DNA of 64,000 bases from Candidatus Doudnabacteria bacterium (GTDB lineage: Bacteria; Patescibacteriota; Doudnabacteria; UBA920), in assembly GCA_031291995.1 (NCBI GenBank), contig JARLHZ010000004.1, positions 5,272 to 69,271 on the forward strand, given 5' to 3'. This document shows, in pieces, positions 1 to 61,739 of this stretch (within the stretch, counting starts at the first letter, position 1; each line of letters opens with the position of its first letter). The position numbers and the translations under genes were made by a program. A model generated the notes under the pieces. The model was not told the origin of the DNA. It ran no database searches and was given only the letters and a program-made list of their open reading frames with translations.

Positions 1-2073
1 GACGGCACCGGCGTGGTCCATAACGCGGCCATGTATGGGGAAGAAGACTACCAGCTGGCCAAGGAAAAAGACCTGCCCCGTACAGACATGCTGGACCACA
101 AGGGCCGGTATCTCCCGATGGCTCCGGAAAATTTAAGGGGAGTGTTTTTTAAAGACGCGGAAAAAATCATCCTTAAGGAACTTCGCGAGAAAAATTTGGT
201 TTATAAAACCGAGCATTACAAACACAACTATCCTCACTGCTACCGCTGCGGCACGCCGCTGTTTTACAATGCTTTGCCGGCCTGGTTTATTAACATTCAA
301 AAAATCAAACCCGAGCTGGTAAAAAATAACCAGGACGTCAGCTGGTACCCCGAGCATTTAAAACACGGACGTTTCCAGCAGGGCGTGGAAAACGCGCCGG
401 ATTGGAATATTTCCCGCAACCGGTTTTGGGCCACGGCTTTGCCGTTTTGGAAATGCGAAAACGCGGATTGTAAAAATGTGACTTGTATCGGTTCGGTGGA
501 AGAACTGCGCCTAAAGTCCGTAAATTTTGCGGAGGTTTATCCGGAAACCGAATCGGAAATTAGGAATCGTGAATCGACAGATCCTAATTCGAAATTCCTA
601 ATTCAAAATTCCAATTTGGATTTGCATCGGCCATATATAGATCGTGTTAAACTTAAATGCGACAAATGCGGCGGCCAAATGGCCCGCATTCCCGAAGTCG
701 TGGACTGCTGGGTGGAAAGCGGCAGTATGCCGTTTGCCGAACTCCACGCGCCGTTTGAAAACCAGGAATTATTCAACAGCCGATTCCCATCCGATTTTGT
801 CGTCGAATATATTCCCCAGACCCGCGCCTGGTTTTATGTCATGCACGTGGTATCCACCATAATTTTCGGCAAAGCGCCGTTTAAAAACGTGGTCACAACC
901 GGAACGATTTTGGCCGAAGACGGCAGCAAAATGTCCAAGAGTAAAAATAATTATCCGGATCCGAATTTGGTCATAGAAAAATATGGCGCCGACGCCCTGC
1001 GTTTTTACCTGCTGACCAGCCCGGTGGTAACCGGTGAAGATTTAAATTTTTCCGAAAAAGGCGTGGCCGACATAGGGCGAAAAATTAACTCGCTGCTTTA
1101 CAATGTCTGGAGTTTTTACCGAATGTACTCAAAAGAGCAAATCAGTCTATCAGCTGATCAGCTTATCAGTTCGGACAGCCATATATTGGATAAGTGGATA
1201 GAGGCGCGGTTAAACCGGGTGCAGGTTGAGGTGACTAAACAGCTGGACGCTTACAATACGGTCAAAGCGGGGAAATCTTTGATTGAGTTCATAAATGACC
1301 TGTCCACCTGGTATTTGCGCCGCAGCCGCGACCGGCTCAAACTGCAAAACGAGGAAAGCAAACGGGTGGCCGCGGTCTTAGGGTTTGTCTTGGCTGAAAC
1401 CGCTAAACTTTTGGCGCCCTTTATGCCATTTTTGGCCGATTTCATTTATAAAGACGTCACCGGCCGGGAATCCGTCCATTTGGAATCATGGTCTAATGTC
1501 AATGCGGCCGCCATAGACAGCGACGTTTTAAATAAGATGGAAATTGTCCGCGAAGCCGTAACCCTGGGCCTGGCCGTAAGAAAAACCAAAAACTTTGCCG
1601 TGCGCCAGCCGCTACTGTCGCTGGCTTTTGATTTTCAGGACGAAAAAGTTGAGCTGGGAGGGGAATATGTTCAGCTGGTTTTGGATGAACTGAACGTCAA
1701 GCAAACCGACAATAATCTTTTGGATAAGAATTTGCGCTCCACAGATACCGTGGTGACGCCCGGAACGAAGGCCGTAAAAGCATTCTACCTGGACCTGCAT
1801 ATTACTCCCGAACTGAAACAGGAAGGCGTGGCACGGGAACTGGAGCGCGCCGTTCAGGATTTGCGCAAAAAAAGCGGGCTGAAGGTCGGCGATCTGGCGG
1901 ATATATACTACAATACCCAGGACGGCGATTTGGAAAATATTTTGCTGAAAATGCTCGACCGTAAAAAAACTTTCATTAGCCAAATCAGCAAAAGTCTGGA
2001 AGTGGAAGTCGACTTTGAAGTTCAGGCTGAAATTGACGGCAAGCCAATTTGGATGGGGATAGTCAAAATATAA
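1..2073 (+). CDS. ileS: isoleucyl-tRNA synthetase, C-terminal ~690 aa (gene starts upstream of window)
   Basis: KMSKS motif (KMSKSKNN), class I aaRS anticodon-binding region, CxxC knuckles (CYRCG, CDKCGG). The frame is open from position 1, so the listed start at 13 (GTG) is internal. Confidence 0.85.
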   Translation, partial: DGTGVVHNAAMYGEEDYQLAKEKDLPRTDMLDHKGRYLPMAPENLRGVFFKDAEKIILKELREKNLVYKTEHYKHNYPHCYRCGTPLFYNALPAWFINIQKIKPELVKNNQDVSWYPEHLKHGRFQQGVENAPDWNISRNRFWATALPFWKCENADCKNVTCIGSVEELRLKSVNFAEVYPETESEIRNRESTDPNSKFLIQNSNLDLHRPYIDRVKLKCDKCGGQMARIPEVVDCWVESGSMPFAELHAPFENQELFNSRFPSDFVVEYIPQTRAWFYVMHVVSTIIFGKAPFKNVVTTGTILAEDGSKMSKSKNNYPDPNLVIEKYGADALRFYLLTSPVVTGEDLNFSEKGVADIGRKINSLLYNVWSFYRMYSKEQISLSADQLISSDSHILDKWIEARLNRVQVEVTKQLDAYNTVKAGKSLIEFINDLSTWYLRRSRDRLKLQNEESKRVAAVLGFVLAETAKLLAPFMPFLADFIYKDVTGRESVHLESWSNVNAAAIDSDVLNKMEIVREAVTLGLAVRKTKNFAVRQPLLSLAFDFQDEKVELGGEYVQLVLDELNVKQTDNNLLDKNLRSTDTVVTPGTKAVKAFYLDLHITPELKQEGVARELERAVQDLRKKSGLKVGDLADIYYNTQDGDLENILLKMLDRKKTFISQISKSLEVEVDFEVQAEIDGKPIWMGIVKI

Positions 2074-9078: not shown

Positions 9079-9082
9079 ATAA

Positions 9083-9190
9083 TGCCAAATTTCAGATTTC
9101 AAATATCAAATCAATGGCGAAGTTTAAAATTTAAAATTTAAAATTAGGATTTGATTTAAAATTTTTAATTTAAAATTTGTAATTGTGTCC
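9083..9190. repeat. word-built hairpin, caaatttcaaat / atttgaaatttg family
   Basis: ccaaatttcagatttcaaatatcaaatc ... gatttaaaatttttaatttaaaatttgtaattg are inverted arms of A/T-rich words. Confidence 0.6.
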
Positions 9191-9192
9191 CA

Positions 9193-14352: not shown

Positions 14353-14481
14353 ATAGTCACGGGTCTGCCGCCGAATATTTATGCTTAACGCGTTAGGCCT
14401 GACCCGGATAGTTATTTGCACTATAATTTGCATCCATCGGTTGCAAATAATTTCAATAAGCGTAAACTGTAGATAGCCATT

Positions 14482-14519
14482 TGGTAGACAAAACGTGCGG
14501 CCGCACGTTTTGTCTACCA
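14482..14519. repeat. 38-bp perfect palindrome, copy 1
   Basis: tggtagacaaaacgtgcggccgcacgttttgtctacca (centre GCGGCCGC). Confidence 0.9.
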
Positions 14520-14563
14520 ATATCAAATAAAAATTATTACAAGTAGTCTTAAAAATAAAGTTT

Positions 14564-14656
14564 CGTCATCCCCGGCTTGACCGGGGATCCAGAATTGTTC
14601 TTACTTGCTTGACTTGGATTCCTCCGTCCGCCTTAGGCGGGAGGACGGGAATGACG
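14564..14656. mobile_element. MITE-like element copy (TGTCATCCCG family)
   Basis: cgtcatccccggcttgaccggggatcc ... ggcgggaggacgggaatgacg. The termini are inverted (gtcatccccg / cgggaatgac). Confidence 0.45.
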
Positions 14657-14717
14657 TAAAGTGGTCAAAGGTTATTTTTTAAGATAGCTTCTAAGATAAA
14701 AATTAAATTTTACTTTT

Positions 14718-15251
14718 ATGCCGAAAAAAGATTCGACCGCGGTAAATGAAGTTTTATTTTGGCTGTACGAGACGGGGAAGCTTTTGTCCGTAATTTTCGC
14801 GTCCAAGCACGAATGGAAAAGGCGGATGTGGAATCATACCTGGGGGAACTACAACAATTATAAATCCACGGTTTACCATATGCGGGAACAGGGGCTGGTG
14901 GAAATCGTGTCCAAAGATGGCTTAAGGTTTTTAAAACTTACGTCCAAAGGGCAAATGGAAGCATTGCTGGCCAAAGCAAAAGTCGTTAAGCGAGCAGTTT
15001 GGGATAAAAAATGGCGGGTGCTGATTTTTGACATCCCGGAAGACGCCAAATTGCAGAGGAACCAATTCAGGCGTCTGTTAAAAAGAAATGAATTTAAAAA
15101 ATTGCAGGCCAGCGTTTATGTAAACCCCTACCCGTTTAACCGCGAGGCAATTGAATATTTAAAAGAATCAGGTTTAATAAAGTACATTCGGATTTTAAAA
15201 GTTGAAGAAATGGACAGTGATGCCGATTTGCGTAAGATGTTTAATATATAG
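14718..15251 (+). CDS. wHTH + Cas2/VapD-fold (PaaX-like) small protein
   Basis: N-terminal winged-helix-like region (VYHMREQGLVEIVSKDGLRFLKLTSKGQ). The C-terminal region matches the Cas2 beta1-alpha1-beta2 pattern (KKWRVLIFDIPED...QFRRLLKRNEFKKLQASVYVN). No cas1 or array is present. Confidence 0.4.
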   Translation: MPKKDSTAVNEVLFWLYETGKLLSVIFASKHEWKRRMWNHTWGNYNNYKSTVYHMREQGLVEIVSKDGLRFLKLTSKGQMEALLAKAKVVKRAVWDKKWRVLIFDIPEDAKLQRNQFRRLLKRNEFKKLQASVYVNPYPFNREAIEYLKESGLIKYIRILKVEEMDSDADLRKMFNI

Positions 15252-15325
15252 GACTTACTTCTTTCAAAGCGGAACACATTTTTTAATGAGCTTCTGATAC
15301 TAGTCAAATAATCTAAAAATAAAAT

Positions 15326-15363
15326 TGGTAGACAAAACGCGCGGCCGCACGTTTTGTCTACCA
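15326..15363. repeat. 38-bp palindrome, copy 2 (one mismatch)
   Basis: tggtagacaaaacgcgcggccgcacgttttgtctacca. Confidence 0.9.
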
Positions 15364-15732
15364 AAGACAAGAGTTGTATTTTTATATTTATAGGCGATAT
15401 TGGCGAATGGCGCGGGTGGTGTGGCGTGGCAAATCAAATCGGATATTCTGAAGGCAATTTCGGTTTTAATCGACACTATTCCCCGGAGCCCCACTCCAGG
15501 GTTAACAATTATGTCATCCCGGAATTTTTCAGGGCTGTGAAAAATATCCGGGATCCAGTCAGGGCGGCATTCTGGATCCCGGCTCTCTACCTTCGTCAAG
15601 GCTACGGCAGACAAGTCGGATGTATTCGGCCGAGCTGATACACTAGCTATTTGGACTTGTTACCACGCTGCTCTGCCGCGGGGAGGGCTCATTGAAAATC
15701 TGATGCCAATCTTAATAATCTAGAAAGAAAAT

Positions 15733-15770
15733 TGGTAGACAAAACGTGCGGCCGCACGTTTTGTCTACCA
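15733..15770. repeat. 38-bp perfect palindrome, copy 3
   Basis: tggtagacaaaacgtgcggccgcacgttttgtctacca. Confidence 0.9.
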
Positions 15771-15955
15771 AAGACAGGTTTTGTTGAAATTATATTTTAT
15801 AGACGATATCGGTGCGTGGCGCGGGTGGTGCGGGGTGGAAAATCGTCCCGGATATTCTAAAGGTAATGTCGGTTTTATCTAATTTTTACCAATACACAAA
15901 ATTGTTCCGTTTCCCGTAGGTTTGCCGGACTATATTTTGACTTTAATTCACAAGT

Positions 15956-24782: not shown

Positions 24783-25181
24783 ATGGCAGATCAAAACAAA
24801 ATAATCCATAAGGATCTCAGTTATAAAATTGTCGGTGTTGCTTTTAGATCTTTTAAGGCAACAGGATATGGAATGCCTGAAAAGTACTGTCAAGGTGTGT
24901 TCGCTGCCGAACTTGAGAAAGCTGGGTTGCACTTTAATCGGGAAGTTTATGTTACTTTAAATTATGAAGGTAAAGTTATCACAAAGTATTTTTTAGATTT
25001 TATTGTTGAAGATTCGGTGGTTGTGGAATTAAAAGTTCGGCCAAAAATCGGATATGCCCATATTGAACAAGTAATGGCATACCTTAAAGCAACGAATAAG
25101 AAATTAGCGATTTTAATCTATTTTACCCAAGAAGGTGTGAAATATCGGAGAATCGTTAATTCTTACAACAAACTACAATGA
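24783..25181 (+). CDS. GxxExxY-family protein (PD-(D/E)XK-like)
   Basis: DLSYKIVGVAFRSFKATGYGMPEKYCQGVFAAELEKAGL...FLDFIVEDSVVVELKV...IEQVMAYLKATNKKLAILIYF. Confidence 0.7.
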   Translation: MADQNKIIHKDLSYKIVGVAFRSFKATGYGMPEKYCQGVFAAELEKAGLHFNREVYVTLNYEGKVITKYFLDFIVEDSVVVELKVRPKIGYAHIEQVMAYLKATNKKLAILIYFTQEGVKYRRIVNSYNKLQ

Positions 25182-25186
25182 GCAGG

Positions 25187-25222
25187 TTCGTATATTAATT
25201 TTAAATTTGTATATTCGCGATT
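25187..25222. repeat. right arm of the inverted repeat bracketing the GxxExxY gene
   Basis: ttcgtatattaattttaaatttgtatattcgcgatt. Confidence 0.7.
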
Positions 25223-25225
25223 ACT

Positions 25226-25909
25226 ATGAAGCTTGAAATGCAAAACAAAAAAAAGCCTATTGGGAAGCCGACGCAGAATTTTTTGCGTATTTCGGAAATA
25301 AAAAACGACACCGTGGTTATGGACGACGGAACTTTGCGGGTCATAATTATGGTGTCCAGCACCAATTTTGACTTAAAGAGCCAGGACGAACAGAATTCCA
25401 TTATTTTCGGTTTCCAGCGGTTTTTAAACAGCCTGGAATTTCCCGTCCAGATTCTCATGCAAAGCCGAAAAATGGAGATTGGCGGCTATTTGGAAAAATT
25501 AAAGAAATTGGCGGACAAGCAGACCAACGAGCTCCTCCGCGTCCAGACCAACGAATACGTGGAGTTTATTTCCCGGCTCATTGAGAACGCCAGCATTATG
25601 AATAAGAATTTTTATATTGTCGTCCCTCTGGGGGAAAGCATTTTTCCGGCCGCCGCGGGGTTCTTTAGCCGCGTATTCGGCAGGGGGCGGGAACGGGAAG
25701 TTACCGAGCGGATAGAAAATTTTGAAAAGGCCAAAGAAAAATTGGACAACCGCGCCACCTCGCTGGCCTCCAACCTTTCGGGTATTGGCATTCGGGCAGA
25801 ACGAATGAAGACGGAAGAAATTATCCAGCTGTATTATAATTCCTATAATTTTGAATCGGGCCCGCTGATAAACCCGGGAGAGCTTAAAGAAATCAAACTA
25901 TCACAATAA
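25226..25909 (+). CDS. protein resembling a VirB4/TrbE N-terminal domain (no ATPase motifs)
   Basis: FLRISEIKNDTVVMDDGTLRVIIMVSSTNFDLKSQDEQNSIIFGFQRFLNSLEFPVQILMQSR resembles the CagE/TrbE/VirB4 N-region. Confidence 0.3.
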   Translation: MKLEMQNKKKPIGKPTQNFLRISEIKNDTVVMDDGTLRVIIMVSSTNFDLKSQDEQNSIIFGFQRFLNSLEFPVQILMQSRKMEIGGYLEKLKKLADKQTNELLRVQTNEYVEFISRLIENASIMNKNFYIVVPLGESIFPAAAGFFSRVFGRGREREVTERIENFEKAKEKLDNRATSLASNLSGIGIRAERMKTEEIIQLYYNSYNFESGPLINPGELKEIKLSQ

Positions 25910-25923
25910 ATCAATTGATTAAT

Positions 25924-26030
25924 GTCAAATTATAAATATCAAATTTCAAATCAATGTCAAAGTTTGAAATTTAAAAAATTTGTAATTAGGTTTTGATTTG
26001 AAATTTGTAATTTGATATTTGAAATTTAAC
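25924..26030. repeat. word-built hairpin, caaatttcaaat family
   Basis: tgtcaaattataaatatcaaatttcaaatcaatgtcaaag ... ttttgatttgaaatttgtaatttgatatttgaaattt. Confidence 0.6.
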
Positions 26031-26032
26031 CT

Positions 26033-27880
26033 ATGTCTATTTTTAGCAAACTCACCGAACAGGATTTAGAACAAAAAAAGGCTCAGCTCAAGGAAAAGGA
26101 GAAGGAACATTCCCTGAGTTCGTCATTGGGCGATTTGGAAAAAACCTATAAGGAAGGCTTGACGACGTTAAAGGATATTATCGCGCCGTCGGCTTTAAAA
26201 TTTGAAGGGTCGCATTTTGAATTAAACGGCAAATACGGCCGCAGTTTTTTCGTGCTGGCCTATCCGCGCTTTTTGTCCAGCAACTGGCTGTCGTTTATAA
26301 TCCAGGCGGACGGAGCCCTGGATTTGTCGATGTTTATTTATCCCATAGACTCGGCGGACATTCTAAAAAAATTAAAGAGCAAGGTCGGGGAACTTGGTTC
26401 GCAAATGTCCATTAACCAGGAAAAGGGCATGGTCCGCGACCCGATGCTGGAGACGGCTTACAAAGACGTGGAAGGCCTGCGCGACAACTTAATGCAGGGT
26501 ACGGAAAAGTATTTTCGGTTCGCCCTGTACTTTACAATATACGCCAACGATTTAAAGGAACTGGACAAATCATCCTCGACCCTGGAAAGCAGCCTGGGGG
26601 CCAAGCTGATTGTTACCAAACGGGCGCTGCTTCAGACGCAGAACGGACTGAATTCCACGCTTCCCATGGGTTTGGACGAACTGGACGTGGCCAATAACAT
26701 GAATACCAGCCCGCTGTCCTCGTGTTTTCCTTTTGTGTCATCGGATTTGACTTCCAACGACGGGATTTTATACGGCATTAACCGACACAATAACAGTTTG
26801 ATATTATTTGACCGTTTTGCCATGGAAAATGCCAACTCCGTTGTGTTTGCCAAGTCCGGCGCGGGGAAGTCTTACGCGGTCAAATTGGAAGTTTTACGAA
26901 GTCTCATGGTTGGCACAGACGTTATTATCGTGGATCCGGAAAATGAGTACCAGCATTTGGCCGCGGCTGTTGGCGGAACTTATTTGAGCGTCAGTTTAAA
27001 TTCCCCGTCCCGCATTAACCCGTTTGATTTGCCGGTTGCCGTGGAAGGTGAAAGCAACGCGGACGTCCTGCGCAGTTCGGTTATTAACTTGCTGGGTTTG
27101 TTCAGTTTGATGCTGGGCAAGCTAAATCCCACCGAAGAAGCCATTATGGACAAGGCCATTTGGCAAACTTACGCCAAAAAAGATATTACATCCGAATTGG
27201 AAGATTTTAAAAACATTGAGTGCCCGACCATGAACGATTTGATGGAAATTTTAAACAGCATGGTCGGAGCCGAGAGCCTGGCTCAGCGGCTGACCAAATT
27301 TACCGAAGGCACTTTTGGCGGATTGCTAAACCAGGCGACCAACGTGGTGCTTAACAACCAGCTGGTGGTATTTTCCATCCGCGATTTGGAAGAGGAACTG
27401 AGGCCAATAGCCATGTATATTATTTTAAATTACATTTGGAATGTCGTCCGCAGCGAATTAAAGCGCCGCATTCTGGCCGTGGACGAAGCCTGGATACTCA
27501 TGCAGCATGAAGACAGCGCCAGGTTCCTGTTCGGTATTGCCAAACGCGCCCGTAAATATTACCTTGGCCTGACCACCATTACCCAGGACGTGGCCGACTT
27601 TTTGGCCAGCCCCTACGGCAAACCGATTGTGACCAACTCGTCCATCCAAATGTTGTTAAAACAATCCCCGGCGGCTATTAATGTAATCGCTGAAACATTC
27701 TTTTTGACCGAGGGAGAAAAATATTTATTGCTGGAAAGCGAAGTCGGCGAAGGGATATTTTTTGCCGGGCTGAAGCACGCGGCCATCAAAATTTACGCGT
27801 CCTACGTGGAAGACCAAATAATTACCACCGACCCCAAACAGCTTTTGGAAATTCAGGACAGCCAGGAAAAGTTGAACTAA
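26033..27880 (+). CDS. VirB4/TrbE-family type IV secretion ATPase
   Basis: Walker A FAKSGAGKSYAV, Walker B ILAVDEAWILM, and a VirB4-like N-region (GKYGRSFFVLAYPRFLSSNWLSFII...DLSMFIYPID). Confidence 0.65.
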   Translation: MSIFSKLTEQDLEQKKAQLKEKEKEHSLSSSLGDLEKTYKEGLTTLKDIIAPSALKFEGSHFELNGKYGRSFFVLAYPRFLSSNWLSFIIQADGALDLSMFIYPIDSADILKKLKSKVGELGSQMSINQEKGMVRDPMLETAYKDVEGLRDNLMQGTEKYFRFALYFTIYANDLKELDKSSSTLESSLGAKLIVTKRALLQTQNGLNSTLPMGLDELDVANNMNTSPLSSCFPFVSSDLTSNDGILYGINRHNNSLILFDRFAMENANSVVFAKSGAGKSYAVKLEVLRSLMVGTDVIIVDPENEYQHLAAAVGGTYLSVSLNSPSRINPFDLPVAVEGESNADVLRSSVINLLGLFSLMLGKLNPTEEAIMDKAIWQTYAKKDITSELEDFKNIECPTMNDLMEILNSMVGAESLAQRLTKFTEGTFGGLLNQATNVVLNNQLVVFSIRDLEEELRPIAMYIILNYIWNVVRSELKRRILAVDEAWILMQHEDSARFLFGIAKRARKYYLGLTTITQDVADFLASPYGKPIVTNSSIQMLLKQSPAAINVIAETFFLTEGEKYLLLESEVGEGIFFAGLKHAAIKIYASYVEDQIITTDPKQLLEIQDSQEKLN

Positions 27881-33642: not shown

Positions 33643-34977
33643 ATGCCCAAATCATCCGTAGTCTTCATTTGCTCCAACTGCCAGTATAGTTCGCCGCGTT
33701 GGCAGGGCAAGTGTCCCAATTGCGGGCAGTGGAATACCCTGGTGGAAAGCCGGGTTAAAATATCAAATTCCAAACATCAAATTTCCAAAGCCGCCGAGCC
33801 GGTGGATTTGGCAATGGTGGATATTAGCCAGCGAGCCAAAATTGTCAGCGGCATATCCGAGTTTGACGACGTGCTGGGCGGGGGCTTTGTTCCGGGCAGT
33901 TTGGTTCTGCTCGGCGGCGACCCCGGTATTGGCAAATCCACATTGGCTTTGCAGATTTCCATGCGGCTGGGAGAAAAAGTTTTGTATGTGTCCGGCGAAG
34001 AATCGGTCCATCAGATAAAATTGCGCTCGGGCCGGGTCAGTGAAAGCCAGCAGCTAAATGTTTTAGCCGAAACGGATTTGGACGCGGTTTTGGCGTCGAT
34101 AGAAGCACGGTCTCCTGAATTGGTGGTTATTGATTCCATCCAAACAATGTACAGCCAGGAGGCCAGCGGCGTGGCCGGCGGCGTGGCGCAGGTTACATCG
34201 GCAGTGCAAAAAATTATGCGCTTGGCCAAGCAAAATCACATTTCTTTTATTTTAATCGGCCATGTTACCAAAGAAGGTTATTTGGCCGGACCTAAAACTT
34301 TGGAGCATATGGTGGACACAGTGTTGTACCTGGAAGGGGAGCGGTTCGCCAGTTTTCGCATTTTGCGATGCGTGAAAAACCGCTTCGGGACAACCAATGA
34401 GGTGGGAGTGTTTGAGATGCAGGGACAGGGTCTGGCCGAAGTTAAAAACCCATCGCAGTTGTTTTTGGGCGAGGAACAAATGCAGGCCAGCGGGAATATT
34501 ATAACATCGGTAATGGAGGGCAGCCGGGCTCTTTTGCTGGAAATTCAGGCTTTAACTTCCGCAACCAACTTTGGTTACCCAAAGCGCACCACGGCCGGTT
34601 TTGATGTTAACCGCCTGCAGCTGCTTACCGCCATTCTTTCCAAGCGGGCGGGGCTAAATTTAGCCAACCAGGACATTTATATTAATGTTGTCGGCGGCAT
34701 AAAAATAGACGAGCCGGCCGCCGATTTAGCCGTGGCGCTGGCCATTGTCAGCAGTTTAAAAGAAGCGGTGGTAGCCGATACTATTGTCGTAGGGGAATTG
34801 GGGCTTTCCGGCGAAGTCCGCTACGTGCCAAACTTGGAGAAACGGATTAAAGAAGCGGAAAAATTGGGATTCAAAAAAATTATCTGCCCCCGCATGCGCC
34901 AAGGTTATGATATTAAAAACGCAAAAATAAAAATCCTGCCGGTAAAAACCTTGCAGGAAGCGATAAACTTAATATAA
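33643..34977 (+). CDS. radA: DNA repair protein RadA/Sms
   Basis: Zinc finger CSNCQYSSPRWQGKCPNCGQW, Walker A GGDPGIGKST, KNRFG motif CVKNRFG, and a Lon-like C-terminal domain. Confidence 0.85.
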   Translation: MPKSSVVFICSNCQYSSPRWQGKCPNCGQWNTLVESRVKISNSKHQISKAAEPVDLAMVDISQRAKIVSGISEFDDVLGGGFVPGSLVLLGGDPGIGKSTLALQISMRLGEKVLYVSGEESVHQIKLRSGRVSESQQLNVLAETDLDAVLASIEARSPELVVIDSIQTMYSQEASGVAGGVAQVTSAVQKIMRLAKQNHISFILIGHVTKEGYLAGPKTLEHMVDTVLYLEGERFASFRILRCVKNRFGTTNEVGVFEMQGQGLAEVKNPSQLFLGEEQMQASGNIITSVMEGSRALLLEIQALTSATNFGYPKRTTAGFDVNRLQLLTAILSKRAGLNLANQDIYINVVGGIKIDEPAADLAVALAIVSSLKEAVVADTIVVGELGLSGEVRYVPNLEKRIKEAEKLGFKKIICPRMRQGYDIKNAKIKILPVKTLQEAINLI

Positions 34978-43378: not shown

Positions 43379-44122
43379 AAAAAGGGGTCAGGAGCCATTT
43401 ACTAGAAGATAGTTTTGTGGTATCTTTAAAATATGCCCAGATCCCAAAGAGCCGACATAGCCAATATTATTTACCATGTCATCAACCGGTCCAATGCCAG
43501 AATGGCCATTTTTGAAAAAGCCCAGGATTTTCTGGCCTTTTTGGAAGTTTTAAGTGAAGCCAGGGAGAAGTTTCTTGTGGAAGTTCTGGCTTTTTGCATA
43601 ATGCCCAACCATTGGCATTTAATTTTAAAACCTTTAAAATACGGGGAACTGTCCAAGTTTATGGCCTGGCTGACAATGACCCATACCCAGCGCTGGCATG
43701 CCTTTCACCACACCGTCGGCAGCGGCCATTTGTATCAGGGCAGGTACAAGTCTTTTCCGGTTCAAACCGATGAGTATTTTATTCAACTAGTCCGGTATGT
43801 GGAAAGAAACCCATTAAGAGCAAAGTTAGTCAAAAGTGCCGAAGACTGGAAGTGGGGCAGTTTATGGTTAAGGCAGCAGGGGACTTTACAACAAAAGCAA
43901 TTACTCGGTTCCTGGCCCATACCGCCGAGTAAAAATTACCTGAAGTTGGTTAATACTGTTCAACCTATAGCCGAAGTCGACTCTATTAGAACCGCCATTG
44001 CAAAAAACCGACCCTTAGGAGACGACCGCTGGGTACAACGCACGGCTAAGACATTGGGTTTAACATCCTCATTAAGAAACCCGGGTAGGCCAAGAAAAAA
44101 CGGCTCCTGACCCCTTTTTGTT
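43379..44122. mobile_element. IS200/RAYT-like unit: tyrosine (HUH) transposase gene bracketed by 18-bp perfect inverted repeats
   Basis: aaaaaggggtcaggagcc at 43379-43396, and ggctcctgacccctttttg at 44104-44122 overlapping the stop codon. Confidence 0.6.
43433..44110 (+). CDS. REP-associated tyrosine transposase (RAYT) / IS200-like HUH transposase
   Basis: HUH motif MPNHWHLIL, a conserved Y in RYVERNP, and the typical N-terminus YHVINRSNARMAIF. Confidence 0.75.
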   Translation: MPRSQRADIANIIYHVINRSNARMAIFEKAQDFLAFLEVLSEAREKFLVEVLAFCIMPNHWHLILKPLKYGELSKFMAWLTMTHTQRWHAFHHTVGSGHLYQGRYKSFPVQTDEYFIQLVRYVERNPLRAKLVKSAEDWKWGSLWLRQQGTLQQKQLLGSWPIPPSKNYLKLVNTVQPIAEVDSIRTAIAKNRPLGDDRWVQRTAKTLGLTSSLRNPGRPRKNGS

Positions 44123-47169: not shown

Positions 47170-47285
47170 TGTGTCATCCCGAGCCGGAACATTACAGGGA
47201 TCAAAGGCGAGGGATCCCTTAACGCGAGATAATCGATTAATTTTAGGGATTCCTCAGTCGGCCGCACTCCTTCGGAATGACACAG
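47170..47285. mobile_element. MITE-like element copy (TGTCATCCCG family) with inverted termini
   Basis: tgtgtcatcccgagccgg ... ccttcggaatgacacag. Internal gggatcaaaggcgagggatccc. Confidence 0.55.
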
Positions 47286-53113: not shown

Positions 53114-54994
53114 TCAGCGATTATTCAGCGGTTTCTTCGGCAAATCCAATTTTATATGCAATTCCTTAAGCTGTTTTTCTTCCACGGTGCCGGGGGCGCC
53201 CATCATGACGTCTTCGGCACTGCCGTTTTTGGGGAAGGCGATGACTTCGCGGATGTTGGGTTCATTTTGAAAAAGCATTAGCATCCGGTCAATTCCCGGG
53301 GCGAATCCGCCGTGCGGCGGTGCGCCGTATTCAAAAGCGCGAATCATGCCGCCGAATTTTTCGTCCACGGTCTCTTTGCTATAGCCGCAAATTTCAAAAG
53401 CTTTGTACATTATTTCGGGTTTATAGTTGCGAATCGCGCCGGATGAAAGTTCCAGACCATTGGCAATAATATCGTATTGATATGCTCTAACCTCATCAGG
53501 TTTCTGCGTATTTAAAGCCTCCAGGCCGCCCTGCGGCATGGAAAACGGGTTATGCATAAAGTCCCAGCGCTTTTCAGTTTCGCTGTATTCAAACATCGGA
53601 AAATCCGTAATCCAGGCCCAGGCTACAACACTAGGATCCTTTAAGCCGAACATATCTCCAAGTTTGTCCCGGAGTTTGCCTAAAACTTTATTTACGATAT
53701 TTTTTTGGTCCGCGCCAAAAAATATAATATCGCCGGGCACCGCGCGGGTTTTGTTAAGGATTGATTGGATTTCATCAGCAGATAAGAATTTGAGGATGGG
53801 GGAGCGTAGCGTAATTGGTTCGTTGTCCGCGCCGTAGTGCAGGCCCGTGGCCTGCTTTTCCTGATTAGGCAGACCGGGGGCCTGCACTATATCCGAATCA
53901 GGTTGACCGCAAACAATATAAGCCAATCCTCCCGCGCCTTCTTTTTTAACCATTTCGGTTAACTCGTCAATCTGGCTTCGTGACATTTTCGCGCCGCCCT
54001 GGCAGCAAATGGCTTTAACCGCGCCACCGCTTTTAATCGCGTTGCCGAAAACGAAAAATTTAGTATCCTTTAAATCTTCGGTTAAATTTACCATCTTCAT
54101 GTCAAACCTCAAATCGGGTTTGTCGCTGCCGTACAAATCCATTGCCTCCAGATAGGGGATGCGGGGAAACGGTTTTTGCCAGACTTTTTTACCGGCAAAT
54201 TTTTCTGTAAGCTCAACAAACAGCGGTTCCATCTCATTAAATACGACCTCATCTTTGTCGGCAAAAGCTATTTCCAAATCAAGCTGGTAGAATTCTCCGG
54301 GGCTTCTGTCGGCGCGCGGGTCCTCGTCGCGGAAGCACGGGGCAATTTGGTAATATTTCGGTACGCCGCCGGTCATGAGCAGCTGCTTAAACTGCTGCGG
54401 CGCCTGGGGTAAAGCATAAAACTTGCCCGGATGTAATCGGGACGGAACTAAAAAGTCGCGCGCGCCTTCGGGCGACGAAGACGTTAAAATCGGTGTGGTA
54501 ATTTCTATAAAACCATGCTCGGTCATGTAGTGATGAATAGTCTGGATCATCTGGTGCCTTTTTTTCAACATGATTTGCATTTTTTCCCGCCGCAAATCCA
54601 AAAAGCGGTATTTTAACCGCAAATCTTCGTTTATATCCGCCTGTTCGCCATGGCCGTGCGCCACCTGGAAGGGGAGAGGCTTGGAAGAATTTAAGACAGT
54701 GATTGACAACGTTAAAATTTCCACGCCGCCGGTGGGCAAATTTTCATTTTTAGTTTCAGCCGAGCGTTCAATAATTTTTCCTTCGGCCTTGATAACAAAT
54801 TCGTCGCGGCATTTGTCCGCCACGGCAAAAGCTTCCTTGTCCTCGGGGTGAATTGCGAGCTGGACTATTCCGGTGTGGTCACGCAGGTCAATAAAAATCA
54901 CGCCGCCGTGATCGCGCCGTGAGTTTACCCAGCCGGAAACCGTAACTTCATGCCCAACCAATTTGGGCGTTTCTAATGCGTATGTTCTTCCCAT
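53114..54994 (-). CDS. aspS: aspartyl-tRNA synthetase
   Basis: OB domain GWVNSRRDHGGVIFIDLRD, class II motifs FRDE and GGGIDRML-like GIDRMLMLF. Start taken at MGRTYALE. The track ORF extends to 55081. Confidence 0.85.
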   Translation of the reverse strand: MGRTYALETPKLVGHEVTVSGWVNSRRDHGGVIFIDLRDHTGIVQLAIHPEDKEAFAVADKCRDEFVIKAEGKIIERSAETKNENLPTGGVEILTLSITVLNSSKPLPFQVAHGHGEQADINEDLRLKYRFLDLRREKMQIMLKKRHQMIQTIHHYMTEHGFIEITTPILTSSSPEGARDFLVPSRLHPGKFYALPQAPQQFKQLLMTGGVPKYYQIAPCFRDEDPRADRSPGEFYQLDLEIAFADKDEVVFNEMEPLFVELTEKFAGKKVWQKPFPRIPYLEAMDLYGSDKPDLRFDMKMVNLTEDLKDTKFFVFGNAIKSGGAVKAICCQGGAKMSRSQIDELTEMVKKEGAGGLAYIVCGQPDSDIVQAPGLPNQEKQATGLHYGADNEPITLRSPILKFLSADEIQSILNKTRAVPGDIIFFGADQKNIVNKVLGKLRDKLGDMFGLKDPSVVAWAWITDFPMFEYSETEKRWDFMHNPFSMPQGGLEALNTQKPDEVRAYQYDIIANGLELSSGAIRNYKPEIMYKAFEICGYSKETVDEKFGGMIRAFEYGAPPHGGFAPGIDRMLMLFQNEPNIREVIAFPKNGSAEDVMMGAPGTVEEKQLKELHIKLDLPKKPLNNR

Positions 54995-55179
54995 AAAACC
55001 GCTGATCAAACGCGGATAGCTACGCTGATACCACGCTGACAGCCAATTCCGCCCTCGTCCGATAGACAGTCGGCAGGGCATTAATATTATGCCCTAATTA
55101 TATCGTAAATGCGGATTTTTGCCAAATAGTTTTATTTTGAATATAATGGATAAAGTTTGATAAATAATCGAAATAAAAA

Positions 55180-55879: not shown

Positions 55880-56728
55880 ATGAAAAAATATCTTTTAGCC
55901 AGTATTATTTTACTCATCGGTTTATTTTTCTTTTTGAAAAATGTTTTTTCCGGCGGGCTAATTTTGCCCCAGACGTTCCGTCTTGGGCCGGTCGTAATTC
56001 ACTATTACGGAATAATTATGGCCGCGGCGGCCGCGGCGGGGTTTGTTTTAGCCACAAGCCGCGTGCGAAAATTTGACCTTGAACCTAAGGCGGCTGAAGA
56101 CATGCTGTTTTGGGTAATCGTTGGCGGCTTTGTCGGCGCGCGGCTGTACCATGTATTGTCTTCATTCGGATATTATCTGCAGTATCCGCTCGACGCCTTC
56201 AAAGTCTGGAACGGCGGATTGTCCATTTATGGCGCCGTCTTGGGCGGCATCTTAACCTTATGGGTTTTAAAACGCCTATTCACTAATCACTATTCACTAT
56301 TCACTATTTTAGACTGGCTCGCGCCGTCCGTTATTTTAGGCCAAATTATTGGACGTTTCGGCAACCTGTTTAATTATGAAGCTTTCGGCTACCCGACCAA
56401 TTTGCCGTGGAAAATGTTCGTGCCGGAAATATTCCGTCCCGTGCAGTTTATCCGGTCGGCTTATTTTCATCCCTGGTTTTTGTACGAACTTTTAGGCAAT
56501 GTTTTAATTCTGACTTTCCTTTTAAAAATGGGAAAGCCGAAACGTCCGGGCCAGGTTGTTTTATTCTATATTTTATTGTATAATAGTCTGAGATTTTGCC
56601 TGGAATTTTTAAGAATTGACAGTACTTTTATCGGGGCTTTCAGGCTAAACGCGATATCGAGCCTGGTTTTGGTGCTCGCGGCCGCCGTGGGACTATTTTA
56701 TGCAAATAAGCGCACTAAGCCATCATAA
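55880..56728 (+). CDS. lgt: prolipoprotein diacylglyceryl transferase
   Basis: GPVVIHYYGIIMAAAA...GARLYHVL...WNGGLSIYGAVLGG...GRFGNLFN...HPWFLYE. Confidence 0.8.
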   Translation: MKKYLLASIILLIGLFFFLKNVFSGGLILPQTFRLGPVVIHYYGIIMAAAAAAGFVLATSRVRKFDLEPKAAEDMLFWVIVGGFVGARLYHVLSSFGYYLQYPLDAFKVWNGGLSIYGAVLGGILTLWVLKRLFTNHYSLFTILDWLAPSVILGQIIGRFGNLFNYEAFGYPTNLPWKMFVPEIFRPVQFIRSAYFHPWFLYELLGNVLILTFLLKMGKPKRPGQVVLFYILLYNSLRFCLEFLRIDSTFIGAFRLNAISSLVLVLAAAVGLFYANKRTKPS

Positions 56729-57458
56729 ATTGGTCGCGTTTGTCCTGGCATTGCTGTTTTTGGCGGTGATGCAGGTTTTTTCCATTCCCCAGCCAATTTT
56801 CAGGTTTATGGTGCCGGCTTTTTTTGGTTTTGTCGCCTTGCTGACCTGGTATAACCATTGGTATCTGACCCGTGTACAAAAATATAATTTTTGGCTGCTG
56901 GTCCGGCCAATCTTACTGCTTTGCGCGAGTTTTGGAATATTTTTGATTATTCCTTCAATCGCCCTGCGCGGAATATTTCTGATGACGTCGGCGGCCATAA
57001 TTTTTTTTATAGAACTGATTTTGGGTAATCTGGCGGAGAACATTCTGCTCAACGAAACTTTGTTAATAGCCTTTGGCCTGTTTTTAGCCTGTTTCGCGGC
57101 TTATTATTACCTGCCGCAATTTGAACCGTTATACCTGGCCGGAATATTTTTATCGGCCGCGCTTCTGACCCGCTCATTTTACGAGGTGGTGCCCCGGCCC
57201 GACAGAGTTAAAACTATCGGGGCATTGGCCATCGGACTGTTTTGCTCCGAGCTTTACTGGGCGCTGAATTTTTTGCATTTCCATTTTAGCGTGCTGAGCC
57301 TGGTACTTTTCAATATATTTTACCTTTGTCTTATCCTCAATTATTACCATTTATTCCATTTGTTAAATTTTAAAAAAATCCAGTTCCATTTAATTTTAAT
57401 CTCCGTTTGCGTGCTGTTGGTTATTTTTTCCACGCCCTGGTCAATCTTACCCCAATAA
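56700..57458 (+). CDS. polytopic membrane protein
   Basis: About 7 TM helices. No family recognised. Confidence 0.35.
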   Translation: MQISALSHHKLVAFVLALLFLAVMQVFSIPQPIFRFMVPAFFGFVALLTWYNHWYLTRVQKYNFWLLVRPILLLCASFGIFLIIPSIALRGIFLMTSAAIIFFIELILGNLAENILLNETLLIAFGLFLACFAAYYYLPQFEPLYLAGIFLSAALLTRSFYEVVPRPDRVKTIGALAIGLFCSELYWALNFLHFHFSVLSLVLFNIFYLCLILNYYHLFHLLNFKKIQFHLILISVCVLLVIFSTPWSILPQ

Positions 57459-57459
57459 T

Positions 57460-58524
57460 ATGAACAAAAAACAGGCCACCTTTATAATTTTAGTCTCCGT
57501 AATTTTGACTTTGCTGGTGAATATATTTTTTGGCCGATATCTCATGGCGAAAATTTCCACCTGGCCGGTATTGAATCGCCTACGGCTGCTTAGCCCCCAG
57601 GCGCCGATTGTTATAAACAATAATCAGACCGTGCGCGTCAGCGACAGCGGCGACGCGGGCCAGTTGGTCCGCCAGGTTAACCCCAAACTGGCAACCGTTG
57701 TTCTGGTAAATAACGGGTCTGTTACGGTGGCCGGAGCAGCCGCTAATTTAACATCCGATGGCGGTTTTGTGGCGGCAACGTCGAGCTTTGGGGCAAAAGC
57801 ACCCGCCGGATATTTTGTGGTGTTAAGCGATGGCACCGAGGCGCCAATTACCCAAATCGCGCTGGATCCCGCGACCTCGCTGGCTTTTTTTAAAGCCGAC
57901 TTAAGCGGCGTCCCTGTGCAAAACCTGGACAACTCGGCCGAAGTGGCCGCCGGAGACAAGCTTTTCTTCATCCAAAACTCCCTGCAAAATTTTACCGCTA
58001 AAGTTGCGGAAGGCGCGGCGGTATCCGGCCAGTCCGATATTGAGGGACAGGTTTTTGCGGCCGACAATCCCAGCCGGGGGTTTGGCATCGGTTCTACCGC
58101 GGGGTTATCGGCGGGCGAAGCGGTTTTAGACAGTTCGGGAAATATTGTGGGAATTTTTAATGGTAGCGCGATAATTTCCGCCGACGTGTTAAAAAAGGCG
58201 ATGAGTTTATTTTTTGGCAATCCGGCGCAAATAATCCGGCCGAGCTTCGGTTTTAATTATTCGATTGTTACACGCAATGACAGCAGGCTGACGGGTCTGC
58301 CGCAGGGCGCGGCGGTAAAATCGGTAGCCGTAACCGGTCCCGCCCGAACCGCCGGCTTGGAAGTTGGCGATATTATTATTTCCGTCGACAGCCAGGCCGT
58401 CAGCGAAGCCTCCACCCTGGAACCGTTGCTGGAAAATTATCAACCCGGGGACACGGCCGCCTTTGTGGTCGCGCGCGGGAAGAACCAGCTGACTTTAAAA
58501 TTAAAAGTCGGACAATTAAAGTAA
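57460..58524 (+). CDS. membrane-anchored PDZ-domain protein, HtrA-like with apparently degenerate protease motifs
   Basis: N-terminal TM and a C-terminal PDZ (GLEVGDIIISVDSQAVSEASTLEPLL...GDTAAFVVARGKNQLTLKLKV). No GNSGG serine motif. Confidence 0.45.
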   Translation: MNKKQATFIILVSVILTLLVNIFFGRYLMAKISTWPVLNRLRLLSPQAPIVINNNQTVRVSDSGDAGQLVRQVNPKLATVVLVNNGSVTVAGAAANLTSDGGFVAATSSFGAKAPAGYFVVLSDGTEAPITQIALDPATSLAFFKADLSGVPVQNLDNSAEVAAGDKLFFIQNSLQNFTAKVAEGAAVSGQSDIEGQVFAADNPSRGFGIGSTAGLSAGEAVLDSSGNIVGIFNGSAIISADVLKKAMSLFFGNPAQIIRPSFGFNYSIVTRNDSRLTGLPQGAAVKSVAVTGPARTAGLEVGDIIISVDSQAVSEASTLEPLLENYQPGDTAAFVVARGKNQLTLKLKVGQLK

Positions 58525-58533
58525 TGTGTAATT

Positions 58534-58983
58534 ATGGATATTGATAAATTACATCTGGAACCGGCAAAAAAAGTTAAGACCAGCGACCATCGGGGCATTG
58601 AGAACGGCTGGCTGATGGAACTGTATAAAGACAAAGACACGGGACAAAAAACCGAAGCTTATTTAACCGCGGCCTTACCGGGCGCGTTTAAGGGCTATCA
58701 TCTTCACCGCGTCCGCGCGGCCAGGTATGTGGCTGTAAAAGGGCGAATGAAAATTACCTGCTACGAAAACCAAGGCGGCAAATGGAAGCCGAGCGAGTAT
58801 ATTTTGTCGGCGGATAACCCGCAAAGATTGTTTATTCCCAAAAATGTGGCCACCGGTCTGGAAAATATCGGCAGTGAAGAAGCCTGGCTCATTAATTATC
58901 CGGATCCAGCCTATGACCCAAGCTTGAAAGACGAACAGGTGGAATACACAAGGGAAGAGCTGGAACGGGGCATTGTTAAATGA
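58534..58983 (+). CDS. cupin-type sugar epimerase/isomerase (RfbC/FdtA-like)
   Basis: HRGIENGWLMELYKD...AFKGYHLH...FIPKNVATGLENIGSEEAWLINYPD. Immediately upstream of rfbB-rfbD-rfbA. Confidence 0.5.
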   Translation: MDIDKLHLEPAKKVKTSDHRGIENGWLMELYKDKDTGQKTEAYLTAALPGAFKGYHLHRVRAARYVAVKGRMKITCYENQGGKWKPSEYILSADNPQRLFIPKNVATGLENIGSEEAWLINYPDPAYDPSLKDEQVEYTREELERGIVK

Positions 58984-59068
58984 ATTAGGAATGATGAATT
59001 AGGAATGATGAATTAGGAATTATGAGTTTGTCCCATTCCTAATTCCTAATTCCTAATTCCTAATTCCA
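58984..59068. repeat. word-built hairpin (taggaa/ttccta family)
   Basis: aattaggaatgatgaattaggaatgatgaattaggaattatg ... cattcctaattcctaattcctaattcctaattcc. Confidence 0.7.
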
Positions 59069-59071
59069 ACT

Positions 59072-60046: not shown

Positions 60047-60047
60047 C

Positions 60048-60881
60048 ATGAGCAATATTTTAATTTTAGGATCGCAGGGAATGCTGGGAGGGGAGCTGAA
60101 ACGCACTTTCTCCAAGGCTTTGGGTTGGGATCGAAAGGAACTTGACCTCGGGCAAATAGGCGATCTTGAGCAACGCCTGGCCGCTTTGCCGCAACTCCCG
60201 GACGCGGTTATTAATTGCGCCGCTTATAACGATGTTGACGGCGCGGAAGCGTATCCCGACAAGGCCTTTTTAATAAATTCCACGGCTGTGGGCAAGATTG
60301 CTTCGGCTTGCAACAGTTTGGGCATCCCGCTCATCCACTTCAGCAGTAATTACGTTTTCGACGGGGAGAAGGGCGAATACCGTGAAGACGACCAGCCGAA
60401 CGCTCTTTCGACCTACGGTAAGTCCAAATATCAGGGGGAGCAATTGCTCCGGAAAAACTGTTTTAAATATTATTTAATCCGCACTTCGGTTTTGTTCGGG
60501 CAGGAGGCCGAGAGCCAATTTGCCAAAAAAAGCTTTATTGAAATTATGCTGGAGCTCAGGGAGACAACCGACACTATTAAAGCGGTAACCGACGAAATTA
60601 ACAGCCTGACATACGTTTCCGATTTGGCCTCGTCGGTGGAAGCCTTAATTACCAAAAAATATCCATATGGAATTTACCATATTGTAAACGGCGGCCAGGC
60701 CAGCTGGTACGACTTTGCCCAGGAAATTTTTCGGTTAAAGGGCAAAGAAGTTAAGCTGGAAGCCGTAGACTCATCCGCATTCCCGCGCAAGGCCTCGCGG
60801 CCGAAAAAAGCTGTTTTACTTAACACCAAGTTCCCCGAGTTGCGCTCCTGGCAGGAAGCGCTCGCGGAATTCCTTAGTTAG
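60048..60881 (+). CDS. rfbD: dTDP-4-dehydrorhamnose reductase
   Basis: ILILGSQGMLGGEL...YGKSKYQGE and a NAD(P)-binding Rossmann fold. Operon context. Confidence 0.75.
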   Translation: MSNILILGSQGMLGGELKRTFSKALGWDRKELDLGQIGDLEQRLAALPQLPDAVINCAAYNDVDGAEAYPDKAFLINSTAVGKIASACNSLGIPLIHFSSNYVFDGEKGEYREDDQPNALSTYGKSKYQGEQLLRKNCFKYYLIRTSVLFGQEAESQFAKKSFIEIMLELRETTDTIKAVTDEINSLTYVSDLASSVEALITKKYPYGIYHIVNGGQASWYDFAQEIFRLKGKEVKLEAVDSSAFPRKASRPKKAVLLNTKFPELRSWQEALAEFLS

Positions 60882-60944
60882 GAATTAGGAAGTAGGAATA
60901 AGGAAACTCCTAACTCCTACTTCCTAACTCCTAAATCCTAATTC
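60866..60944. repeat. word-built hairpin (taggaa/ttccta family)
   Basis: ttaggaattaggaagtaggaataaggaaactcctaactcctacttcctaactcctaaatcctaattc. Confidence 0.7.
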
Positions 60945-61658: not shown

Positions 61659-61737
61659 TTTACGAAGTACGAAGTTTTACGAACCTACGAACGCGCGAAC
61701 TTCGTAAGTTCGTACCTCTTCGTACTTCGTAAACTCC
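61659..61737. repeat. word-built hairpin (tacgaa/ttcgta family), near-copy of 2076-2159
   Basis: tttacgaagtacgaagttttacgaacctacgaacgcgcgaacttcgtaagttcgtacctcttcgtacttcgtaaactc. The right arm abuts the ATG at 61740. Confidence 0.7.
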
Positions 61738-61739
61738 AT

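Follow-up and report, generated by a model that had tools for sequence, protein, structure and literature searches.

The ileS insert and its surroundings

We analyzed a 64,000-nt stretch of a single contig (JARLHZ010000004.1; this whole stretch is referred to as the window), whose first gene, ileS, encodes an isoleucyl-tRNA synthetase and carries an in-frame insert built of 7-nt units, the subject of this study (Table 1). The solved IleS2 structure of Priestia (PDB 8c9d) matches the window protein at E 3e-133, and the top database relatives of the latter are 69–71% identical proteins of Candidatus Doudnabacteria or Patescibacteria; by these database matches the host of the insert is Doudnabacteria-like. 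The open reading frame (ORF) stays open across 549–611, and on either side of it both the KMSKS motif and the conserved blocks of IleS are preserved. The insert occupies a linker of about ten codons located between VYP and LDLHRPYID and bracketed by four invariant cysteines, which we take to be the zinc module of IleS. The codons around it read S181 E I R N R E S T D P N S K F L I Q N S N L D L204, followed by H205 R P Y I D, and EIRNRESTDPNSK is a stretch of the predicted insert peptide. An earlier reading of this DNA, made from the letters alone and termed here the sequence-only reading, had placed hairpin-word DNA and its peptide at this point of ileS, which both the sequence and the ORF confirm. 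It had also counted some 24 extra residues in front of HRPYID; the extra residues are real and their number depends on the reference, being 21 codons by the heptamer parse, 25 residues relative to 8c9d and 15–19 relative to the Doudnabacteria orthologues with a bare linker. Deleting 549–611 in silico produces VYPETNLDLH, with a length near that of the shortest (bare) orthologues.

Table 1. Coordinates of the ileS insert, of its parts and of related features in the window. dG, predicted folding energy; z, score of that energy relative to shuffled sequences; TRF, Tandem Repeats Finder.
Feature	Position	Strand	Basis
ileS, type-2 isoleucyl-tRNA synthetase, C-terminal 691 codons	1..2073	+	ORF; gene start upstream of the window
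Codons of invariant Cys148 and Cys158, upstream half of the four-cysteine module bracketing the linker	454..486	+	50-sequence alignment
In-frame insert, nine heptamer units, 63 nt, 21 codons (within E180..S200)	549..611	+	heptamer parse, lag-7 identity, TRF
Left arm, four GAAT-type units, purine-rich	549..576	+	parse
Core hairpin, perfect 10-bp stem and inner 5-bp stem	558..603	+	folding, inverted-repeat search
Loop unit	577..583	+	parse, folding
Right arm, four AATTC-type units, imperfect complement of the left arm	584..611	+	parse, TRF, spacer matches
Codons of invariant Cys216 and Cys219, downstream half of the four-cysteine module	658..669	+	50-sequence alignment
Word hairpin of another class, TACGAAG / CTTCGTA, directly 3' of the ileS stop codon	2074..2162	+	dG -40.5 kcal/mol, z -7.6
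In-frame hairpin of a different class inside aspS (53114-55081), encoding DIVQAPGLPNQEKQATGLHY	53835..53889	-	dG -36 kcal/mol, z -5.2
Hairpin of the same word family, GGAATGA/TGAATTA arrays facing TTCCTAA x4.7, filling the spacer upstream of rfbB	58984..59071	+	dG -33.1 kcal/mol, z -6.8
Hairpin of the same word family, TTAGGAA/GTAGGAA facing TCCTAAC/TTCCTAC, between rfbD and rfbA	60870..60944	+	dG -31.8 kcal/mol, z -5.7
Word hairpin	61659..61739		z -8.6

The insert is a periodic repeat built of spacer words

Parsed in sevens, positions 549–618 read CGAATCG GAAATTA GGAATCG TGAATCG in the left arm, ACAGATC in the loop, and CTAATTC GAAATTC CTAATTC AAAATTC followed by CAATTTG on the right. TRF detects an array of period 7/14 at 582–616, and the identity of the insert with itself at a lag of seven nucleotides is 0.58, as compared to a coding mean of 0.25 (sd 0.07), putting it among the highest 0.5% of 6522 coding windows. 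Its arms contain a perfect 10-bp inverted repeat, AATTAGGAAT (558–567) and ATTCCTAATT (594–603); eight such perfect repeats, this one included, were found in about 55 kb of coding DNA, where codon shuffling gives a mean of 1.8. The word ATTAGGAA occurs 14 times in the window for 3.3 copies expected, a number that none of 100 shuffles reached, with two copies in the insert, seven in the spacer at 58984–59064 and one at 60884. A test comparing the sharing of 9-mers with the own and with other loci was confounded by unequal lengths and AT-rich low complexity, and a listing of the longest exact matches was used instead: those between the insert and the spacer at 59009–59067 reach 12–13 nt. The insert and the spacer hairpins moreover have the same left-arm, loop and right-arm layout in the same orientation relative to transcription. 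The identity of its words with those of the rfb-operon spacers, another claim of the sequence-only reading, is thus upheld by word counts, exact matches and layout. As a periodic repeat, the insert is beyond chance.

These figures bear on the simplest alternative, namely that the segment is an ordinary variable loop of native low-complexity IleS sequence in which a hairpin arose by chance and which matches the spacers because of its AT-rich composition. Its fold energy lies within the shuffle range (see below), and in the confounded test mentioned above the 9-mers that it shares with its own genome did not exceed the cross-genome background. Nevertheless, the lag-7 identity, the number of 10-bp inverted repeats (8 versus 1.8) and the excess of ATTAGGAA (14 versus 3.3) all disagree with an ordinary loop, as does the absence of the segment from outgroups and nearest relatives, and we find this explanation hardly credible.

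The spacers to which the insert is related have a characteristic architecture, which the hairpin following the ileS stop codon exemplifies for the genome in general. In many spacers of the window, what we call word hairpins take up the whole distance between one gene's stop codon and the start codon of the next. Each is composed of tandem 7-nt words, a loop and the inverted array, the unit variants of one arm being mirrored in the other. Word classes include TACGAAG, TAGGAAT/TAGGAAG, CAAATTT and a 9-nt word of the TGTCAA type. The intergenic word hairpins fold with z between -3.8 and -8.6, the exception being 9079–9192 (z -0.9). No family was assigned to any hairpin by Rfam at the gathering threshold, where three tRNAs were the only hits. 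We rejected the possibility that the word hairpins are classical intrinsic terminators, as a terminator scan of 56000–63000 called none of those present there; by eye, both the insert and the spacer hairpins are AT-rich and have no T tail, the hallmark of an intrinsic terminator being a G+C-rich stem followed by a run of T. The four spacer hairpins of Table 1 take up whole spacers between co-directional genes, the next start codon following 3–8 nt past the stem with no obvious Shine-Dalgarno sequence.

Outside this genome, the TTCCTAATTCCTAATTCC array (TTCCTAA) was found in at least 120 unrelated metagenome contigs (L087–L206) with GC contents of 39–66%, mostly outside long ORFs, and some copies are translated as FLIPNSSFLIPNS or ELGIRNEELGIRN. 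In view of this range of contigs, the word is not lineage-specific.

The translation of such an array imposes a simple arithmetic. The spacer hairpins of the TAGGAAT type contain stops in all six frames, and the window copy at 549–611 is stop-free solely in the frame that is used. As three heptamers amount to seven codons, an array is read in all three phases, and a perfect complement of GAAT[TC]A-type words brings TAA or TGA within every 21 nt; this would explain why the coding copy has no perfect arms and its hairpin is weak.

The IleS linker is bare or filled with unrelated elements in orthologues

In order to place the insert in its lineage, we compared 120 database orthologues and 81 loci with DNA (about 12 kb each, labelled L001 and so on, the window included), the latter being retrieved by peptide patterns and tblastn without reliance on gene calls. 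After merging of duplicates the set contained 172 sequences. The segment from the conserved W of FWKCE to HRPYID ranges from 45 to 100 residues. It is bare (45–53 residues, for example VYPNYDPANLEKLDLH) in 84 of the 172 orthologues, and the outgroups L075, L076 and L078, from Portnoybacteria and Magasanikbacteria, have bare segments of 46 residues. The solved IleS2 8c9d is likewise bare, with 5 residues versus 30 in the window. The remaining orthologues exhibit, in the same VYP-LDLH linker, at least six unrelated insert classes. Over the whole set, the linker contains 0–55 extra residues.

Class A, the window type, consists of GAATNNN arrays facing NNAATTC arrays in the same frame. Its segments are found in about 11–15 related lineages, scattered among bare and other-class relatives; in L007, L009, L010, L012, L020 and L069, among others, the arm type and reading frame of the left arm are those of the window. 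The encoded peptides follow the pattern E-L-R-I-K-N-x-E-S ... F-I-I-H-N-S and the z of the hairpins spans +0.3 to -3.9. Class B is made of AGATTTA arrays and class D of ATTTCAA/AATTTTC arrays in a single orientation. Class C is a GTAG-ended element of about 57 nt with 21-nt terminal inverted repeats beginning GTAGCGCGCC, class E a GC-rich multi-hairpin of 150–200 nt (dG about -99 kcal/mol, z -7 to -10) and class F a long CGTCATTCTGA...TCAGAATGACG hairpin. Several further types exist beyond these six. Classes C and F and the elements of L038 and L057 fold with z of -2 to -5.

In spite of the 7-nt unit, the reading frame continues without interruption across the linker in all 81 loci, which indicates that the segment is translated and selected for frame. 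Bypass, splicing or excision of the insert was rejected on the same grounds, each of the 81 loci being also stop-free through the site. The nearest relatives of the window carry class C, a bare linker or other inserts, and class A is absent from them. The class-A segment can therefore not be regarded as native sequence conserved among relatives, whereas such conservation is what the sequence-only reading had named as fatal to its own proposal. A native IleS insertion domain should be alignable and vertically inherited among relatives, and what we observed is a linker that is bare in about half of the set, a scattered class A, and a closely related pair of loci, L009 and L207, that differ at the site. 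A neighbour-joining tree of the 172 IleS sequences was too coarse to address class-A polyphyly or to count gains, and we consequently relied on close pairs and clades. The idea of a repeat-element insertion into an essential gene holds, given the absence of the segment from the outgroups, from 8c9d and from 84 of 172 orthologues together with its heptamer periodicity and inverted-array layout. The comparison thus supports the segment being an insertion relative to the ancestral state.

The linker is a permissive site with turnover of elements

The most informative clade has C-terminal two-thirds that are 86–95% identical in protein and 78–88% identical in DNA, and nonetheless displays five different linker states: bare in L083, class B in L084, class E in L081 and L004, class C in L086 and also in L082, where a further hairpin is nested inside the element, and class F in L085. 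Similarly, in the pair L009 and L207 the flanking DNA is about 90% identical, with a class-A segment in the former and a CAACCCT array in the latter. These aligned loci show the VYP-LDLH linker to behave as a recurrent hot spot for unrelated elements in Doudnabacteria. The window insert is accordingly not a one-off, a point that goes beyond the sequence-only reading, and elements also lie in other genes, including aspS in the window (see below).

We further inspected predicted structures. In the AlphaFold2 model of a full-length class-A orthologue, P0077 (mean predicted local distance difference test score, pLDDT, 77), a helix extends into the first arm (pLDDT about 71), the second arm is a low-confidence coil (about 52) and the flanks score 75–92; a model of the truncated window fragment, in which the N-terminal half is missing, gave a poor catalytic core. 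Confidence within the insert is thus below that of its flanks, and the position may be compatible with the fold. The suggestion that the insert is tolerated as a surface loop is borne out as far as a permissive linker is concerned, as orthologues 86–95% identical elsewhere accept 0–55 unrelated residues there; its exposure at the surface is what this tolerance would imply.

The occupied linker of about half the orthologues, in many cases containing structured RNA (dG about -99 kcal/mol for class E, z -2 to -5 for classes C and F and for L038 and L057), and the moderate-confidence prediction of a helical first arm in class A could be taken to indicate a selected function, either of the mRNA structure (a pause between IleS domains, or a site for an RNase or a regulator) or of a lineage-specific peptide contacting the tRNA or a partner. 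Such a function is poorly reconciled with occupants that are unrelated in sequence, length and fold stability, with the half of orthologues that have none, with class-A hairpins that range from z +0.3 to -3.9, with the lack of any Rfam family match, and with the presence of the same elements in many unrelated genes and spacers. We therefore judge it very unlikely.

The same elements occur in other genes and at other sites

A TRF census of 942 kb of related loci identified 115 period-7 arrays, of which 66 are coding, 35 intergenic and 14 straddle a boundary; since intergenic DNA makes up 12% of the total, arrays are roughly four-fold enriched in it. Coding arrays recur at particular sites: in ArgRS after YTHARIxGILRK (14 or more loci) and at the N-terminus, and in IleS after FYRMY (8 loci) and after HYPFEN. 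Individual loci provide examples with other elements, such as a second class-C element in L001 (10415–10500), a class-E element in frame in the neighbouring argS of L004 (3860–3960), a PHPGPLPxGEG-coding hairpin present twice within the ileS of L013 and a CAACCCT hairpin or array in frame in both ileS and argS of L023.

In the window, the hairpin inside aspS adds 24 residues within the GAD domain of AspRS as compared to PDB 4wj3, and its + strand sequence starts with GTAGTGCAGGCC, as do class-C elements in related genomes. Taken over all loci, the window included, the same element types occur in frame in argS, aspS, radA and other ileS sites; the only coding copy of the insert's own word class in the window is the one in ileS. 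The radA array, at 33758–33789, is short and encodes KISNSKHQISK after the RadA zinc ribbon.

A second repeat-like stretch of the window ileS, at 1141–1170, has a period of 8 (ATCAGTCT), encodes ISLSADQLISS and occupies the FYRMY / HILDKW linker, where eight related loci have in-frame heptamer arrays.

Origin of the ileS insert

We propose that 549–611 is probably a translated and partly decayed copy of the genomic heptamer-array inverted repeats, kept in a permissive IleS linker with no function of its own. In this view, the incoming DNA would have been copied from a hairpin element that existed already, and would have been either inserted or brought in through recombination with an allele containing such an element; it would not have grown in place. 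Selection would then have retained only the open, in-frame version, and the arms would lose full complementarity under coding constraint, leaving a weak and decaying hairpin. The ribosome would simply read through the insert, and the roughly 21 extra residues would persist, with no function of their own, because the linker tolerates almost any extra peptide. Neutral baggage is the most likely status of the segment in this window. For the non-heptamer classes, insertion is demonstrated by other copies with matching ends and by the nesting seen in L082.

Several observations weigh against this proposal. The hairpin named by the sequence-only reading is there as a sequence pattern of inverted arrays and a 10-bp repeat, but it is no more stable than shuffles: 553–618 folds at -13.3 kcal/mol (z -1.55), 15 of 200 dinucleotide shuffles being as stable, and the insert in its 101-nt context has a z of -1.0. 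As a thermodynamic hairpin, the insert is not beyond chance. We consequently dropped fold energy as the chief argument, and the case rests on periodicity, words and comparative data. Heptamer-class copies in the genome share words (up to 13 nt exact) and have no full-length consensus with defined ends, and we saw no target-site duplication at the boundaries of this insert or in seven alleles of relatives, which means that transposition-like insertion is not demonstrated for the heptamer class. Some relatives contain arrays of one orientation, for instance CCAAATTTTCAA... in L061, to which native sequence could have given rise in place. The nearest IleS relatives of the window, at most 71% identical, are too distant to date the event. 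We infer a surface position mainly from the extreme tolerance of the site. Finally, in the pair L009 and L207, a patch of about 200 nt around the site is only 63% identical, pointing to allele replacement by recombination and not to precise insertion; this suggests that at least some replacements proceed via recombination with a divergent allele.

The genes of L081 and L082 also present a patch of reduced identity (alignment columns 750–1200), ileS being about 90% identical in nucleotides elsewhere and about 63% in the patches. Patchy identity suggests that these ileS genes are mosaics resulting from recombination between Doudnabacteria lineages.

Part of these observations would fit a local origin, in which slippage multiplied a heptamer of native linker codons, intrastrand template switching (quasi-palindrome formation) produced the inverted arm, and the likeness to spacers reflects a shared mutational process. 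Such an origin would explain why we observe word families and not copy families, each spacer hairpin mirroring its own unit variants, why arrays of one orientation start directly in the native VYPNF codons (L035, L061, L059 and L073), why arrays are locally homogenised (AATTCAG x4 in L010, GAATCAA x4 in L012), why no target-site duplications are seen, and why TTCCTAA arrays turn up in at least 120 unrelated contigs of such different GC content. However, slippage alone yields direct arrays only, and the insert has the complete layout of the spacer elements, with two arms and a loop; for classes C, E and F at the linker, further copies that agree in their ends clearly exist in the genome; and class-A DNA reappears, with its GC[AT]GAAT start, in lineages from whose closest relatives it is absent. 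We consider a local origin unlikely and retain the arrival of a pre-existing element as our working explanation.

Further repeats in the window

Additional repeat features were recorded in the window. The lgt gene contains an in-frame CTATTCA x4.7 array at 56276–56308, encoding LFTNHYSLFTI in Lgt, and two hypothetical proteins without Pfam match (ORFs 19964–21520 and 22173–23696) contain several in-frame heptamer arrays at 21036–21121 and 22337–22977. The words of these arrays (CAAATTA, AGCAGAC, AGACAGC, in up to 11 units) encode peptides such as ITNNKLQIPNG and QQTADSKQ, and some are shared with spacer hairpins. Spacer elements of the GTCATCCC...GGAATGAC type, at 14560–14690 and 47170–47275, resemble the class-F hairpin that lies in frame in the ileS of L085. 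Three copies of a 40-bp perfect palindrome, TTGGTAGACAAAACGTGCGGCCGCACGTTTTGTCTACCAA (one of them a variant), at 14481–14520, 15325–15364 and 15732–15771, surround a small ORF (14718–15251) with a PaaX central (Cas2-like) domain; these palindromes could be operators or repeats similar to repetitive extragenic palindromic (REP) sequences. Finally, a cluster at 23749–27880 encodes a 23S rRNA intervening-sequence protein, a PrgI-like protein, a PD-(D/E)XK nuclease and a TraG/VirB4-like ATPase, with CAAATTT word hairpins interspersed, and may be a remnant of a type IV secretion or conjugation system.

Comparison with known repeat systems

In terms of function, the ileS insert most closely resembles the Rickettsia palindromic elements (RPEs), palindromic repeats that occupy spacers and also lie in frame within housekeeping genes, at fold-compatible positions, and whose repeat identity is lost over time (PMC10969869, PMC6649704). 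Both are multi-copy palindromic repeats of spacers that also lie in frame in unrelated genes, are translated as an extra peptide and decay, and both reside in reduced-genome, host-dependent bacterial lineages. For the ileS insert, the additional copies are those of the two rfb spacers, related in words and architecture only, and the in-frame state is evident from the open ORF and the otherwise intact host protein. The differences are equally clear: RPEs measure about 100–150 bp and form families with a full-length consensus and a conserved peptide, whereas the ileS insert has 63 nt, is made of 7-nt words in both orientations and belongs to Patescibacteria, members of the candidate phyla radiation (CPR). 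Its length and build set it apart, by description, from RPE-1 to RPE-10 of Rickettsia, and we rejected membership in these families. To our knowledge, the recurrent filling of one linker by many element classes is not a reported feature of RPEs.

The tandem organization recalls the short tandemly repeated repetitive (STRR) sequences of cyanobacteria, which can also occur in frame in cyanobacterial proteins. Intergenic heptamer arrays of Nostoc include ttgtcagttgtcagttgtca (44 copies) and attgcgaattgcgaattg (PMC2408588, Table 3). Both systems consist of 7-nt words repeated in tandem over short distances; the arrays are numerous in each genome, lie chiefly in spacers and can in some cases form hairpins, and the lag-7 identity of 0.58 and the 115 arrays in 942 kb agree with such a tandem organization. 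The Doudnabacteria arrays differ in being typically paired with an inverted array, which results in long, spacer-filling hairpins, and in lying in frame in essential genes as well. The Doudnabacteria-like host and the words GAATNNN / NNAATTC also depart from the cyanobacterial host and the STRR consensus.

REP sequences and bacterial interspersed mosaic elements share with the heptamer hairpins the form of short imperfect palindromes scattered in spacers without target-site duplications; in addition, the window contains a Y1-transposase-like gene, and the class-C elements of relatives and the aspS insert start with GTAG. A REP proper, of the system with REP-associated tyrosine transposases (RAYTs), is an extragenic imperfect palindrome of 20–40 nt with a conserved GTAG head, and the cognate Y1 transposase gene has the same repeats on its flanks, whereas the ileS insert starts with CGAATCG, is intragenic and is heptameric. 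The single copy of GTAGYGCRNNCC in the window lies in the aspS insert. The Y1 (IS200-like) transposase-like ORF, at 43433–44110 (+), encodes 225 aa matching PF01797 at E 9e-17; its best NCBIfam match is the REP-associated tyrosine transposase, at 69 bits, below the curated cut-off of 80. Inverted copies of the 13-mer GGGGTCAGGAGCC (43384–43396 and 44102–44114) flank the ORF; this 13-mer is found nowhere else in the window and does not resemble the insert or the hairpins. We thus found no link between this gene and the heptamer hairpins and discarded that candidate.

Miniature inverted-repeat transposable elements (ERIC, BOX and others; PMC10969869) are likewise small, non-autonomous inverted-repeat elements that can lie inside ORFs and add residues. 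For the heptamer class, in which the two arms of the insert are inverted arrays, no terminal inverted repeat with target-site duplication and no partner insertion sequence was identified; only class C of the relatives has a clear terminal inverted repeat, of 21 nt. Inverted repeats whose two arms are both translated, and which are gained and lost between species, also exist in the mitochondrial coding sequences of Nematomorpha (PMC6649704). These, however, are long, perfect and apparently maintained, whereas the ileS copy is short and imperfect. Stable inverted repeats within coding sequence are rare and few cases have been listed (PMC6649704). A limited literature search found no paper linking CPR bacteria with coding palindromes, and nothing relevant on STRR, on heptanucleotide repeats or on CPR palindromic elements.

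Implications

The ileS insert is a clear case of a coding inverted repeat in an essential gene of an uncultivated CPR bacterium, and forms part of a wider pattern among aminoacyl-tRNA synthetases (IleS, ArgRS and AspRS), in which comparable linkers have repeatedly taken up different repeat elements. We tentatively raise the possibility that Doudnabacteria, and perhaps other Patescibacteria, are a second lineage after Rickettsia routinely carrying hairpin repeats in frame in essential genes, with two new features. If this were true, the first would be a main element type whose heptamer word is arrayed in both orientations, its compatibility with coding being set by stop-codon arithmetic, three units making seven codons. 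The second would be the existence of hot-spot linkers, namely IleS VYP|LDLH, IleS FYRMY|HVLDKW and ArgRS ARIxGILRK|ELSVLRKL, where unrelated elements swap on a species-level time scale; such hot spots would suggest hairpin-targeted insertion or recombination over random insertion followed by selection.

Segments of this kind inflate CPR protein lengths, and in annotation and structure prediction they show up as low-complexity or "novel" regions that are spurious. They also mark permissive sites in aminoacyl-tRNA synthetases, and provide a natural system for investigating how repeat DNA turns into protein sequence and whether hairpins draw further insertions.

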